64,000 bases of DNA from a plasmid, in sequence record NZ_LC532224.1; one strand, 5' to 3'. A program made the translations under genes and the position numbers. Below, piece by piece: positions 30,991-43,533 of this stretch. Below the pieces are notes generated by a model, which was not told the origin of the DNA, did not search any database, and saw only the letters and a program-made list of their open reading frames with translations. The first letter of the stretch is position 1. Every line of letters begins with the position of its first letter.

Positions 30991-31039
30991 TACTATAGTG
31001 GGGTATGTGTTGATCTTAATGTAATACTCCCCTATAGTA
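30991..31039. promoter_or_regulatory. Probable frmR operator: two RcnR/FrmR-type sites (TACT-N-C4/G4-TATAGTA) at 30991..31005 and 31025..31039.
   Basis: tactatagtggggta and tactcccctatagta are AT inverted repeats flanking a G/C tract, as for the RcnR/FrmR family. They sit about 30-75 bp upstream of frmR. Confidence 0.5.
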
Positions 31040-31067
31040 TAAGAAATACAGAGCAGTGAGGTAAGCA

Positions 31068-31343
31068 ATGCCCAGTACTCCTGAAGAGAAAAAAAAGGTC
31101 CTAACCCGGGTTCGCCGTATCCGGGGTCAGATTGATGCTCTGGAAAGAGCACTTGAAAGTGGCGCTGAATGCCGTTCCGTTCTCCAGCAAATCGCCGCCG
31201 TCCGGGGCGCCGCTAACGGACTGATGGCAGAGGTGCTGGAGAGCCACATACGGGAAACCTTTGACCAGAATGACAGCTACAGTCATGAAGTCAGTAAATC
31301 AGTTGACGATACGATTGAGCTGGTTCGTGCCTATCTTAAATAG
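31068..31343 (+). CDS. frmR: FrmR formaldehyde-responsive repressor (RcnR/CsoR family).
   Basis: 91 aa. The conserved Cys in [20 protein letters not shown] is typical of the family. Confidence 0.85.
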
Positions 31344-31377
31344 GTGAGGCCATTATTACATTGAGGATATATTACGT

Positions 31378-32487
31378 ATGAAATCACGTGCCGCTGTTGC
31401 ATTTGCACCAGGGAAGCCCCTGGAGATTGTTGAAATTGATGTTGCTCCGCCTAAAAAAGGCGAGGTGCTGATTAAAAACACCCACACAGGTGTCTGCCAT
31501 ACCGATGCCTTTACCCTCTCAGGGAATGACCCTGAGGGCGTTTTCCCGGTGGTTCTCGGCCACGAGGGAGCCGGTATCGTCGTTGAAGTTGGTGAAGGCG
31601 TCACCAGTGTGAAGCCGGGTGACCATGTTATTCCGCTCTACACCGCTGAATGCGGGGAGTGTGAATTCTGCCAGTCCGGTAAAACGAACCTCTGTGTATC
31701 GGTTCGCGAGACTCAGGGCAAAGGACTGATGCCTGACGGGACCACTCGCTTTTCATACAACGGTCAGCCTCTTTACCACTACATGGGATGTTCCACATTC
31801 AGTGAATACACCGTTGTGGCCGAGGTTTCTCTGGCAAAAATTAACCCGGAGGCGAACCATGAACACGTCTGCCTGTTGGGTTGTGGCGTGACTACCGGTA
31901 TTGGCGCCGTCCATAACACGGCTAAAGTGCAGCCGGGCGATTCAGTTGCCATTTTTGGTCTGGGGGCAATTGGTCTGGCTGCGGTACAGGGGGCCCGTCA
32001 GGCAAAAGCGGGACGTATTATCGCTATCGATACTAATCCGACAAAATTTGACCTGGCCCGTCAGTTCGGGGCCACTGACTGCATTAACCCGAATGATTAT
32101 GACAAACCGATTAAAGATGTTCTGCTGGATATCAACAAGTGGGGTATTGACCATACCTTTGAATGTATCGGTAACGTTAACGTCATGCGTGCAGCGCTGG
32201 AAAGTGCTCACCGTGGGTGGGGGCAGTCCGTTGTCATTGGTGTCGCAGGGGCCGGACAGGAGATTTCCACCCGTCCTTTCCAGCTGGTCACCGGGCGCGT
32301 ATGGAAAGGTTCCGCGTTTGGCGGAGTAAAAGGCCGCACTCAGCTCCCCGGTATGGTCGAGGATGCCATGAAGGGGGATATTGACCTTGAGCCATTTGTA
32401 ACCCATACGATGACACTGGATGAAATCAATGACGCCTTCGAGCTTATGCATGAAGGCAAATCTATCCGGACAGTGATTCATTACTGA
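31378..32487 (+). CDS. frmA: S-(hydroxymethyl)glutathione dehydrogenase (class III alcohol dehydrogenase).
   Basis: [54 protein letters not shown]…. Confidence 0.9.
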
Positions 32488-32530
32488 TCCCATCAGAATT
32501 TTAATCAACTCAAACTGAAGGAAGTGGAAA

Positions 32531-40701: not shown

Positions 40702-40715
40702 AAAGGGCTGTGTCG

Positions 40716-41039
40716 TCATTGCGTCAATGGCGGCACATTCCCGGCGTGTTCTGTATCAGTAATCTCCCGCAGGTATAATTTCAGCGCATCCCACTGGTTC
40801 AGCGCGTACGCGAACGCCTTCGACAGCTCCGAGTGCCGTGACAGCGTTTTCTGCTTTTCACGCAGCCAGCCCTCCAGCGCGGTCAGCAGCGGTACCGCTT
40901 TTTCCTGCCGAATGGCCAGCCGTTCCGCCGCGCTTTTGCCCCGGATGCCCGCCTCGATGCCATACAGCTCGCCGATACGGCACAGCGCTTCGGTCGTGGT
41001 GTCAGAGGGCGTCCGCACGTGCACGTCCGCCTGCAACAC
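40716..41039 (-). pseudogene. IS66-family transposase internal/C-terminal fragment.
   Basis: …KSAAERLAIRQEKAVPLLTALEGWLREKQKTLSRHSELSKAFAYALNQWDALKLYL… matches a conserved IS66 TnpC region. The fragment is truncated on both sides. Confidence 0.65.
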
Positions 41040-41641
41040 CCCGCTGAACCCCGCAAGATGCGACTGCGGATGTGTAACGCTGGCGTGATAGAAATTTTAA
41101 GTCAGTCATCAGGTGTCCACCTAATTAGGGGTCAGTTTGGATATCGAAAATTATTGTACGTCAAGGTTATTTTTTGACCTCTCTACTTTAGCGGGCCTCA
41201 GCCGACGAAACTTATCGGAAGCCGGTACCGGCCAGTCTGACTGAAGATGGAAGCAAAATTAATGCTGTGGGCTACCATACCTTCTTTAACAGGTGATTTG
41301 TGAACTGCAACTTCTCGGAACGGGAGTTTGCGCAAGGACCGGAAGTCCGCTTTTCGCTCATAGCGGACCGTTCCTGCGCACATGTCTGCTATGTGGTAGA
41401 GGCAGACAATACTTACAGCACAGGGCGTTAATAAATACGGAACAGATCAACCGCAGATGCCTCCTCCTGAATGTATTAATTTTGCTATCTCGTCGGCAAA
41501 ATCAGGGAACAAGTCTGGATATGGAAGCGCCTGGCAGCTGAAAGTATGAATAATAACGCCCTGACAGGATATTTTATTGCACCCTGTCAAAAGTCATACA
41601 TTCTTTCCCGGTTTTTGCTTTCTCATACCGGATAACTCTAT

Positions 41642-42775
41642 TTAAGGCTTAAGGATAACCTTCGTCCATCCTTCATCCCGCTCATCGAAGTGCTTATATC
41701 CGGCAGGAGCCTCTTCAAGCGAAAGACGATGAGAAATTATTTTGCCCGGACTGGCTTTATCGTGATGGATGAGGCGAGACAGCTGACGGTTATAGGCCTT
41801 AACGTTCGCCTGGCCGGTACGGATTGCCTGTCCTTTAAACCAGAAACTCCCAAAATCAAATGGCATCTTACCCTCTCTGGCAAGCTCCGATTCAGCCCCC
41901 GGATCCTGAGGAATAAAGACGCCAACCACACCAATTCCCCCGGTTGCTTTCGTCGACGCAACAAGACTGTTCATGGTAACAGAGTTATCTTCATGGCCAT
42001 GTTTGTTACAGCACTGATAGCCAACACATTCGCAGCCACAATCCGTACCGCGTCCATCCGTCAGGTCGAGAATTTTTTGTACAGCTTCATCGCCAGTAGC
42101 ATTGATGCCCGTCGCCCCCATTTTTTCAGCCAGAGCCAACCGGTCTGTGTGCGTATCAACCACAAACACCTGTGAAGCACCTTTAATGATCGCCGAATGA
42201 GCTGCCATCAAACCGACCGGCCCCGCGCCATAAATGGCCACGCTTTCACCAGGCTTCAATCCGGCAAGTTCTGTTGCATGCCAGCCGGTAGGAAAAATGT
42301 CAGAGAGCATCACATAATCATCTTCTTTTTCTGCCGCATCAGGGGGAAGAACAAGGCAGTTAAAGTCGGCAAATGGCACCCGAAGAAGTTCCGCCTGACC
42401 TCCCTCCCAGGGACCCATTTCAGCAAAACCATAAGCTGCGCCTGCCGTACCCGGATTGGTAGTGAGACAAAAGCCGGTCAGACCTTTTTCACAGTTTTCG
42501 CAAAAACCACATCCCACGTTAAACGGCAGACAAACATAGTCGCCCACCTTAATACGTTCAACGCCTGAGCCAATTTCGACCACTTCACCCAGGTTTTCGT
42601 GACCCAGAATCCGTCCCTGTTCAAAGCTGGTCCGGCCCTCATACATGTGCAAGTCCGACCCACAAATGTTGGTGGTGGTGATGCGGACGAGTACATCCGT
42701 GGGGCGGACAATTTTCGCATCCGGTACGTCTTTTACTTTTACATCATAAGGACCGTTGTAAATTACTGCTTTCAT
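41642..42775 (-). CDS. fdhA: Glutathione-independent formaldehyde dehydrogenase (Zn-dependent, FdhA-like).
   Basis: MKAVIYNGPYDVKVKDVPDAKIVRPTDVLVRITTTNICGSDLHMYEGRT… shows Zn-ADH motifs. AAGGAG RBS. Confidence 0.8.
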   Translation of the reverse strand: MKAVIYNGPYDVKVKDVPDAKIVRPTDVLVRITTTNICGSDLHMYEGRTSFEQGRILGHENLGEVVEIGSGVERIKVGDYVCLPFNVGCGFCENCEKGLTGFCLTTNPGTAGAAYGFAEMGPWEGGQAELLRVPFADFNCLVLPPDAAEKEDDYVMLSDIFPTGWHATELAGLKPGESVAIYGAGPVGLMAAHSAIIKGASQVFVVDTHTDRLALAEKMGATGINATGDEAVQKILDLTDGRGTDCGCECVGYQCCNKHGHEDNSVTMNSLVASTKATGGIGVVGVFIPQDPGAESELAREGKMPFDFGSFWFKGQAIRTGQANVKAYNRQLSRLIHHDKASPGKIISHRLSLEEAPAGYKHFDERDEGWTKVILKP

Positions 42776-43206
42776 GATCTTCTCCTTCTTGCGTGCGGAA
42801 AGGAAATGCTGCCCCGCGGATTGGGGTATCAATCGAGTTTAGCTGCCATAACAGATCTCGCGATCGGCGAAAGGACGATTAGGATGTTTCTTAACTAAGT
42901 GCATTGAAGTCTGTAAGACAGGTACTTACCGATGAAGGCTGCCTGGAAAACGTAAAAACATCACACGTTAATCCGGTTTTTTTAAGCAGGCAAGGGATTA
43001 CGGACAGCTTTGAGCGAGAAGCGGATAAAGTAAATCTATCTCATTTCTGCATTGTGCCAGAAGTAGACATAGGTGAATTAGGTAACCCTAGAGATGCACT
43101 TTGAATCAATGATATGAAATGCTGAAAAGGTAATTAACTAATTCAAAATTTGAATAATCAGTTATCTCTTCCATGCTTAATACGTAACCTTAGCTAAGGA
43201 GAAATT

Positions 43207-43533
43207 ATGTTAGACGAATACAAAAAATGCATCGAAGCCTGTTATCTATGTGCAACGGCATGTGATAACTGTGCGGCTTCGTGTCTCGACGAAGAGAATC
43301 TGGAGATGATGCGCGAGTGCATAAAACTGGATATGCAGTGTGCAAATATCTGCCGTCTTGCAGCTCAATTCATGACACTAAATAGCGGGTCTGCCCAGGA
43401 TCTTTGCCGTCTTTGCGCTGATGTTTGTCAGAAGTGCGGTGACGAGTGTGGAAAGCATGAACATGACCATTGTCAGGATTGCTCAAGCGCTTGTCATCAC
43501 TGCGCCGAACAATGCAGAAAGATGGCCGCCTGA
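43207..43533 (+). CDS. Cys-rich four-helix-bundle copper-binding protein (DUF326, Csp/YhjQ-like).
   Basis: 108 aa with many regularly spaced Cys (CxxxC) in predicted helices. Confidence 0.65.
   Translation: MLDEYKKCIEACYLCATACDNCAASCLDEENLEMMRECIKLDMQCANICRLAAQFMTLNSGSAQDLCRLCADVCQKCGDECGKHEHDHCQDCSSACHHCAEQCRKMAA

Follow-up and report, generated by a model that had tools for sequence, protein, structure and literature searches.

Introduction

Plasmid-borne homologues of frmA and frmB give formaldehyde resistance in Enterobacteriaceae, as reported for adhC of pVU3695 and for clinical Escherichia coli (PMC13029678). In the integrative and conjugative element (ICE) ICEPni1, a variable region lists FrmA, FrmB, FdhA, RarA, UvrA, and UvrB, and this region has been called a mosaic of unrelated categories (PMC7466150). 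Fungal Starships that give formaldehyde resistance carry a uvrA gene from Gram-negative bacteria, nearly only where the ssf cluster is present, and resistance in them depends mainly on a disulfide oxidoreductase (PMC11623301, PMC10104507). Here, we analyzed a formaldehyde-resistance island on a plasmid (record NZ_LC532224.1; the whole 64,000-nucleotide stretch that was analyzed is called the window). In this island, an intact frmR-frmA-VOC-frmB operon is accompanied by the 3′ end of a second frmR-like gene (frmR2) and by uvrA2, a gene for a class II UvrA protein.

The function of class IIa UvrA proteins outside antibiotic producers has been stated as unclear; knock-outs have little or no ultraviolet (UV) phenotype, and no clear phenotype is known for the Deinococcus uvrA2 gene (PMC9328131). 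We found no link of class II UvrA with frm or FrmR operons in the freely accessible literature, except for the gene list of ICEPni1. The original prediction, made from the window alone, had called a frmR-like gene followed by a uvrA paralogue an arrangement that is not described. This holds in that no paper linking class II UvrA to FrmR operons was found, but the co-occurrence had already been listed, uninterpreted, for ICEPni1 (PMC7466150), and the parallel in fungal Starships had been noted (PMC11623301). What appears to be undescribed is that formaldehyde-responsive clusters recurrently end in a class II UvrA gene and come with uvrB and rarA paralogues.

Our analysis suggests that the island consists of two layers, a complete FrmR-repressed operon and the wreck of a second, larger FrmR-headed cluster. 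We consider it probable that this two-layer explanation is right as a whole, including the part in which uvrA2 is a gene for dealing with formaldehyde lesions.

Comparison with Described frm Clusters

As in the frmRAB operon of E. coli and Salmonella, frmR, frmA, and frmB of the window score above the NCBIfam equivalog cutoffs, FrmR has Pro2 and Cys35, and G/C-tract operators lie upstream of frmR. The window operon differs in that it is plasmid-borne, has a VOC gene between frmA and frmB, has an insertion sequence (IS), IS1, 20 bp upstream of its operators, and is accompanied by remnants of a second frm cluster. By description, pVU3695 and the plasmids of clinical E. coli share with the window the plasmid-borne frmA/frmB homologues interspersed with other genes; a UvrA paralogue is unmentioned in those reports. 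Likened by gene content, the ssf clusters of Starships are also on mobile elements and hold a glutathione-dependent formaldehyde dehydrogenase, an S-formylglutathione hydrolase, an FdhA-like alcohol dehydrogenase, a disulfide oxidoreductase, and uvrA. However, their hosts are eukaryotes and they have no FrmR regulation.

The second layer of the window compares with extended frm clusters of ICEclc-family elements and enterobacterial plasmids, such as those in variable region 4 of ICEPni1 (PMC7466150), in Klebsiella pneumoniae p1194_11_1, and in Aeromonas caviae Aero21 p1. In these clusters, the orthologues of the window's frmR2 fragment, oxidoreductase remnant, and uvrA2 are the first, the penultimate, and the last gene, and an FdhA-family gene is found in those islands as it is in the window. 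In contrast to them, the window has lost frmA2 (except for five codons), VOC2, DUF3422, fghA2, most of the oxidoreductase gene, uvrB, and DUF488, and the promoter and operator at the head of the cluster are gone.

uvrA2 at the End of frm Clusters in Intact Relatives

We collected uvrA2 orthologues with 72–89% identity from one genome per species, from plasmids, and from metagenomic contigs (the loci carry numbers such as L003). Of about 30 informative species loci, 12 have a co-directional frm cluster that ends in uvrA2; two further loci were partial and one was decayed. Five architectures were found, and the proteins that they share are 68–91% identical between architectures. In the enterobacterial type, a divergent uvrB is followed by frmR-frmA-VOC-DUF3422-fghA-oxidoreductase-uvrA2-DUF488. 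The Burkholderia/Cupriavidus type has this core plus rarA. The Pseudomonas type has frmR-frmA-VOC-fghA-oxidoreductase and then a second unit, frmR-DUF3422-rarA-uvrA2. The ICEclc-like type has frmR-frmA-VOC-DUF3422-fghA-oxidoreductase-rarA-nhaA(DsbA)-uvrA2, with uvrB and fdhA a few kb upstream, and the Proteus type has frmA-VOC-fghA-oxidoreductase-rarA-uvrA2. Such clusters were also found on plasmids and ICE-like contigs, and plasmids of 12 of the 5426 complete E. coli genomes carry the intact enterobacterial cluster (hosts: humans, poultry, and gulls). Examples of strains with an intact type-A cluster are E. coli 1585m1 (plasmid NZ_CP086392.1) and K. grimontii 06D021.

This arrangement could be accidental, that is, uvrA2 could be unrelated cargo that was brought beside the formaldehyde genes by IS activity and deletions. 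The window is indeed heavily IS-scrambled (IS1, IS3, an IS66 fragment, and a group II intron were found by open reading frame (ORF) listing and family scans), some uvrA2 copies are merely bracketed by IS elements, and half of the orthologues have no frm neighbors. However, uvrA2 is terminal and co-directional in all five architectures despite their protein divergence, and the gap before it is only 25–59 bp where rarA or nhaA precedes. All-against-all clustering of the neighbors showed that the frm-cluster genes are the only widely shared ones; outside these genes, a GlxA-type AraC regulator was found near uvrA2 in seven loci, and one other family likewise in seven. In a simple neighbor-joining tree, frm-linked uvrA2 genes are found in at least four clades, where they are mixed with stand-alone chromosomal copies from the same host groups. 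Because the architectures are divergent and the linked copies are spread over at least four clades, the linkage is not that of a single recent element. The fungal case is an independent parallel. Accidental juxtaposition is thus quite unlikely in our view.

Decay of the Second frm Cluster in the Window

The features of the island are listed in Table 1. The original prediction that the 3′ end of a second FrmR-like gene, cut by an IS3-family element, precedes the uvrA paralogue was confirmed. The frmR2 fragment is 73–80% identical to the FrmRs heading the extended frm clusters and 49% identical to the window's own FrmR. It begins exactly at the end of the IS3 element, which abuts codon 46/47. 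Pfam gave no match for the 102-aa ORF that contains the fragment. By six-frame reading and tblastn across the window, the other side of the IS3 element included, no frmR2 5′ half was found besides the intact frmR, and an operator pattern search of the window gave no FrmR operator near the fragment. Judged from its sequence, frmR2 is a pseudogene and would once have headed an extended frm operon.

The DNA of the window is colinear with L003, L009, and L086 through the frmR2 3′ half, a 57-bp spacer, and five frmA codons, and then diverges; the breakpoints given by blastn agree with this junction. At the position of the deletion, L003 (plasmid pKpn23412-362) retains a degenerate frmA2. The next recognizable coding sequence is the 3′ remnant of an oxidoreductase gene, whose intact orthologues are NDH-2-like NAD(P)/FAD proteins (Pfam Pyr_redox_2 and NDH2_C) and precede uvrA2 in intact enterobacterial clusters. 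Past the stop codon of this remnant, a hairpin is kept between the window and intact clusters (L004 and L009), with a compensatory change of the outer pair (A-T vs. G-C), and is precisely deleted in L006 and L003. It has no T-run, so it was not called a terminator in the window; its role may be in attenuation or in RNA stability.

These data are consistent with an ancestor of the type frmR-frmA-VOC-DUF3422-fghA-NDH2-like oxidoreductase-uvrA2. A deletion would have fused frmA2 codon 5 to about codon 384 of the oxidoreductase gene, and the IS3 element, which was later invaded by the group II intron, would have removed the frmR2 5′ half together with the promoter and operator. In this scenario only the terminal gene of the second layer, uvrA2, survives. 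Because of the deletion and the IS3 insertion, the adjacency of the frmR2 fragment and uvrA2 is secondary. The idea that the two genes were an original pair is not borne out by the intact relatives, in which they are never adjacent and have three to seven genes between them.

The decayed locus is widespread. Many plasmids of Klebsiella, Enterobacter, Citrobacter, Leclercia, Salmonella, and Pantoea carry the segment 37100–40750 with 100% identity. This segment was matched by 591 plasmid records, 164 of which cover at least 80% of it, and its carriers include IncC and IncN plasmid types. The chromosome of [Erwinia] mediterraneensis (locus L006) has it with 99% identity. The window is a known and widely disseminated fossil, in which uvrA2 is orphaned from its regulator.

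Regulation of uvrA2

An operator, ATAnTATnnGGGnGTAT (0–1 mismatch), lies 40–55 bp upstream of the frmR heading each cluster, and the background of this search was one hit in 733 kb. The second frmR of the Pseudomonas type, which heads the frmR-DUF3422-rarA-uvrA2 unit, is preceded by a related site that was read by eye, a G/C tract flanked by inverted repeats. Since uvrA2 of the intact relatives stands in the same co-directional cluster as frmR, with the operator at the head only, ancestral control of uvrA2 by FrmR is the best reading of these loci. Spacing and motifs make co-transcription from the FrmR-controlled promoter the most economical reading for the intact clusters.

The situation in the present window is different. 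Because frmR2 lost its 5′ half and operator, and neither an FrmR operator nor a sigma-70 consensus precedes uvrA2, the gene is predicted to be uncoupled from FrmR. No sigma-70 consensus promoter was found between the frmR2 fragment and uvrA2 in the window, and terminator-like hits in the same interval fell only inside the frmR2 coding sequence and the IS end. The genes of the IS3 element point away from uvrA2. If expressed, uvrA2 of the window would use an unmapped promoter. The suggestion that uvrA2 was under a frmR-like repressor is thus supported for the ancestor, whose intact counterparts are FrmR-headed, but not for the window as it is now. Two weak operator matches at 33979 and 37451 lie within the inverted repeats of the IS3 element and were rejected as chance. 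A CTGT-N8-ACAC sequence in the spacer was considered as a LexA box and discarded, as read by eye, with one core mismatch and no conservation in the type-A clusters.

As a second alternative, uvrA2 could serve in general stress or as a backup for excision repair, have its own regulation, not that of FrmR, act on UV lesions or other bulky adducts, and have been co-selected on stress islands. The class IIa UvrAs of Xanthomonas and P. putida have a small effect on survival after UV, and radiation induces the D. radiodurans gene (PMC9328131). The spacer before uvrA2 in enterobacterial clusters is about 200 bp long and contains the conserved hairpin, the islands also hold uvrB and rarA, and purifying selection on uvrA2 seems to persist after loss of the operon (see below). 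However, no promoter-like or LexA-type site was recognized in the spacer. The gap of 25–59 bp in the ICE, Burkholderia, Pseudomonas, and Proteus variants is too short for an obviously independent unit, and the subunit of the Pseudomonas type that ends in uvrA2 starts with a second frmR, which has an operator of its own. On balance, we regard a backup repair gene outside FrmR control as unlikely.

Further perfect or near-perfect FrmR operators were noticed in the islands (L009 13640–15752, L015 18821–18837, L011 19–35, and L014 27–43). In L009, a second FrmR, which is 96% identical to the window FrmR, precedes an iron-type alcohol dehydrogenase gene. On these elements, FrmR may control further genes besides the frm genes.

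The Class II UvrA Protein

The best solved relative of the window UvrA is D. radiodurans UvrA2 (PDB 2VF7; E = 0, 1158 bits), and class I UvrAs score about 700 bits. Residues 132–144 of the window protein bridge residues 137–284 of Bacillus stearothermophilus UvrA (138–283 are skipped), so the protein has neither the UvrB-binding domain nor Zn module 1. In agreement with this, the Pfam scan of the protein gave no UvrA interaction-domain family, and UvrA_DNA-bind (PF17755) was matched. Both ATPase modules are complete. The Walker A motifs are at residues 46 and 565, the ABC signatures at 415 and 769, and the Walker B motifs at 437 and 792; Zn modules 2 and 3 have their CxxC pairs at 154/290 and 679/702. 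We take the protein to be a bona fide class II UvrA by these features, as had been predicted.

About 815 residues were aligned with D. radiodurans UvrA2 (PDB 2VF7/2VF8); the two proteins share a domain set, and both have no UvrB-binding domain. They differ in genomic setting and in an extra insert of about 45 residues in the window protein (333–378), which has no counterpart in D. radiodurans UvrA2 and is the most variable part relative to L006. Among three copies of uvrA2 that share the decayed arrangement, the ratio of nonsynonymous to synonymous substitution rates (dN/dS) was 0.15–0.28 (13–22 differences), which hints that the gene is still under selection after the loss of the operon.

Class II UvrAs also include Ecm16 and DrrC of Streptomyces. 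Ecm16 acts independently of excision repair and requires ATPase activity (PMC9328131). Thus, uvrA2 might encode a drug-resistance protein of this type, which strips intercalators from DNA and has nothing to do with aldehydes; the original prediction had itself named a DrrC-type gene as an alternative. The architecture without a UvrB-binding domain is the same, and uvrA2 is found on multidrug-resistance plasmids. However, the window protein is much more distant from Ecm16 (PDB 7SH1; 445 bits) than from D. radiodurans UvrA2. The genes for Ecm16 and DrrC belong to antibiotic biosynthetic clusters, and these proteins act on a non-covalent intercalator, whereas no biosynthetic or drug-efflux genes are conserved beside uvrA2 in 35 loci and its recurrent neighbors are formaldehyde genes. 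A drug-resistance role of this kind is very improbable. As a plausible analogy, the ATP-dependent and excision-repair-independent action of Ecm16 may serve as a working model for the window UvrA.

Proposed Function of uvrA2

We propose that in intact clusters transcription of uvrA2 would start at the FrmR-controlled promoter, or at least be regulated together with it, and would be formaldehyde-inducible. UvrA2 would then scan DNA, driven by ATP, and in this way find or resolve formaldehyde lesions, namely DNA-protein or DNA-DNA methylene crosslinks, without the canonical hand-over to UvrB; the uvrB, rarA, and DUF488 paralogues of the same islands may be its partners. The role in repair of DNA-protein crosslinks, which the original prediction had also raised, is a hypothesis. 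More generally, class II UvrAs of the D. radiodurans UvrA2 type might be the DNA-protection arm of the formaldehyde regulon, induced through FrmR with the detoxification enzymes, often together with UvrB, RarA, and DUF488 paralogues, and helping to remove or reverse methylene crosslinks without canonical UvrB hand-over. We put this extension forward tentatively and think it doubtful in its full breadth.

Several points weigh against the proposal. An FrmR operator directly upstream of uvrA2 was found in no locus, the window and its relatives being searched. Possible interruptions of a common transcript exist, namely the conserved hairpin and the long gap between the oxidoreductase gene and uvrA2 in the enterobacterial type and, in the ICE type, a hairpin with a 15-bp stem that lies after VOC and before DUF3422. 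A local frmR is missing from the Proteus variant. About half of the uvrA2 orthologues are stand-alone chromosomal genes with unrelated neighbors, so the link is facultative. The locus sample was seeded with peptides from the window UvrA and is biased to close relatives, and the dN/dS estimates rest on just 13–22 substitutions. Nevertheless, the three alternatives discussed above are all less well supported than the formaldehyde-lesion explanation.

The placement of uvrA2 in frm clusters gives a concrete condition under which to study class II UvrA, which is formaldehyde challenge. If the proposal is true, this would be the first physiological function for a class II UvrA outside antibiotic producers, and it would explain why a bacterial uvrA is found in fungi with Starship-borne formaldehyde resistance. 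Plasmids and ICEs carry the frm-uvrA2 clusters in Enterobacterales, Pseudomonas, Burkholderiales, and Aeromonas, and paralogues of uvrB and rarA are often present too. A further aspect is clinical. Methenamine, which releases formaldehyde, is promoted for prophylaxis of urinary tract infection, and plasmid frm genes already confer resistance (PMC13029678).

Other Genes of the frm-uvrA2 Islands

A uvrB paralogue is present in intact islands (L009 1944–3962, minus strand; L087 13028–14614; L086 4648–6624). It is divergent from frmR in the enterobacterial type, where it is disrupted by IS5 in the K. pneumoniae plasmid, and it lies 3.4 kb upstream in the ICE type. Its co-residence is odd, as the class II UvrA has no UvrB-binding domain. 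A DUF488 protein (PF04343, active DUF488-N3a subclade) recurs beside uvrA2 or uvrB (L006 12856–13287, L007–L009, L004, and L086 3841–4272). In several variants, a RarA/MgsA paralogue is encoded directly upstream of uvrA2 (L086 15692–18927, L088 6736–9967, and L093 4417–5730), and the ICE type adds an NhaA antiporter fused to a thioredoxin/DsbA domain near rarA-uvrA2.

Relatives of the GlxA-type AraC regulator class control formaldehyde-releasing pathways. The GlxA-type regulator (DJ-1/PfpI domain) recurring near uvrA2 is 1–4 kb away from it, and some of the seven loci have no frm genes. It was recorded at L006 6595–8012, L003 3067–4484, L011, L014, L023, L026, L038, and L040, and in some loci it is paired with an ABM monooxygenase-fold protein. 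No uvrB, DUF488, ABM, or GlxA-type genes were found in the window.

Orphaned uvrA2 genes bracketed by IS elements were seen in Acinetobacter-type and Serratia contigs (L089/L090 and L091/L092), the elements being IS256-family in the former and IS3 plus IS66 in the latter. FdhA-like or iron-type alcohol dehydrogenase genes lie near these copies, which resembles the situation in the window.

Table 1. Features of the formaldehyde-resistance island, with positions in the window.
Feature	Position	Strand	Evidence or remark
IS1 copy	30257..30969	+	InsA and InsB ORFs 30257–30954; right terminal repeat runs to 30969; an identical plasmid has the annotation IS1 InsA
FrmR-type operator, perfect, upstream of frmR	30990–31006		ATACTATAGTGGGGTAT; inverted relative to the next operator
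FrmR-type operator, perfect, upstream of frmR	31024–31040	-	ATACTATAGGGGAGTAT
frmR, formaldehyde-responsive repressor, 91 aa	31068..31343	+	PF02583, E = 1e-23; NF008464, 180 bits vs. cutoff 133
frmA, S-(hydroxymethyl)glutathione dehydrogenase, 369 aa	31378..32487	+	TIGR02818, 742.7 bits vs. cutoff 544
VOC/glyoxalase-fold protein, 132 aa	32531..32929	+	PF00903
frmB/fghA, S-formylglutathione hydrolase, 278 aa	32994..33830	+	TIGR02821, 398.6 bits vs. cutoff 281.7
IS3-family element truncating frmR2	about 33954..37492	- (transposase)	43-nt perfect inverted repeats 33954–33996 and 37450–37492
Group II intron in IS3 orfB, 2270 bp	34477..36746	-	Boundaries by comparison with the intron-free IS in L006
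frmR2 3′ half, 45 codons and stop	37494..37631	+	Colinear DNA alignment with intact clusters
frmA2 stub, first five codons	37689..37703	+	ATGAAATCACGTGCA = MKSRA; deletion junction directly after
Oxidoreductase 3′ remnant, residues 384–435 of 436 (52 codons)	37701..37856	+	tblastn, 75% identity
Hairpin past the oxidoreductase stop	37873..37892	+	ACCGCTGAA-AC-TTCAGCGGT; alignment with type-A clusters
uvrA2, intact class II UvrA, 883 aa	38050..40701	+	PDB 2VF7 match, motifs, Pfam
IS66-family transposase fragment	40716..41039	-	Pfam DDE_Tnp_IS66
FdhA-like Zn-dependent dehydrogenase, 377 aa	41645..42775	-	Best hit: glutathione-independent formaldehyde dehydrogenase family
DUF326 Cys-rich four-helix-bundle protein, 108 aa	43207..43533	+	PF03860; divergent from the FdhA-like gene

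The Intact frmR-frmA-VOC-frmB Operon

The earlier description of a frmRAB operon with an extra VOC gene and FrmR-type operators agrees with our result that the equivalog cutoffs are passed and two perfect operators are present (Table 1). The pattern search for FrmR operators gave 5 matches with at most 3 mismatches against 0.76 expected, a count reached in 0 of 100 shuffles. The frmR promoter itself has the G/C tract with AT-rich inverted repeats, in two copies. Pro2 and Cys35, which are sensor residues according to the E. coli FrmR structure (PMC5146963), are present in the window FrmR (MPSTPEE...GAEC35) and in all cluster-head FrmR relatives. VOC orthologues are 84–87% identical and have the same position in the relatives, and the gene is a conserved extra member of plasmid and ICE frm clusters. 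In this first layer, formaldehyde would inactivate FrmR, and FrmA and FrmB would then oxidize the glutathione adduct to formate. The right end of IS1 (…GTTGGAGTCATTACC, ending at 30969) is 20 bp from the first FrmR operator, and IS1 sequence may have taken the place of the -35 region that the frmR promoter originally had.

Mobile Elements around uvrA2

The IS3-family element has inverted repeats and orfA/orfB homologues. Its left end has an inverted copy of the right terminal repeat (33954–33996) and then a second, 88% matching repeat (33995–34018), and this pair suggests a duplicated end. A target-site duplication was searched for at both flanks of the element and none was found; an 8-nt sequence, GAGCCGTT, is near both outer flanks at offset positions. 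The IS3 end encodes SVQ in place of the SVR of FrmR2, and the element may thus have inserted beside a target that resembles an inverted repeat. The end sequence is common to many unrelated plasmids. The 41 bp to the left of the element are also found in L006 and at another IS flank in L003, with no FrmR coding there. In L006, the same insertion site holds an intact copy of the element without the intron.

The intron in IS3 orfB is a mobile element nested in a mobile element. Its reverse transcriptase/maturase ORF (34567–36090) has the Pfam domains RVT_1 and GIIM, and its RNA is matched by Rfam RF00029 at 34477–34563 on the minus strand (64.9 bits vs. cutoff 40; domain V/VI). The gene order implied by the original prediction has to be corrected here, as these domains rule out a dehydrogenase for the long ORF at 34.5–36.1 kb. 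That prediction had overlooked the intron, the IS66 fragment, and the frmA stub and oxidoreductase 3′ end between the frmR2 fragment and uvrA2. The IS66 fragment stands in place of the DUF488 gene that comes after uvrA2 in L006–L009.

FdhA-like and Other Genes Downstream

All elements named in the earlier inventory of formaldehyde-related genes were found in the window by ORF listing, Pfam, and NCBIfam, and two of their labels need qualification. The gene that had been called fdhA, for a glutathione-independent formaldehyde dehydrogenase, is a family relative by best hit, but its product is below the TIGR02819 equivalog cutoff (350.8 vs. 636.95 bits) and is 36% identical to ICE-borne FdhA. Its substrate assignment is putative. 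The Csp-like label for the Cys-rich protein is not supported, as its score is below the TIGR04401 (Csp1 family) cutoff (38.4 vs. 100 bits) and only DUF326 Cys-rich repeats were matched; it is a DUF326 protein only. The OYE, ArsR, MBL, and EamA/DMT genes that had been reported further downstream are present at 46.5–51.1 kb.

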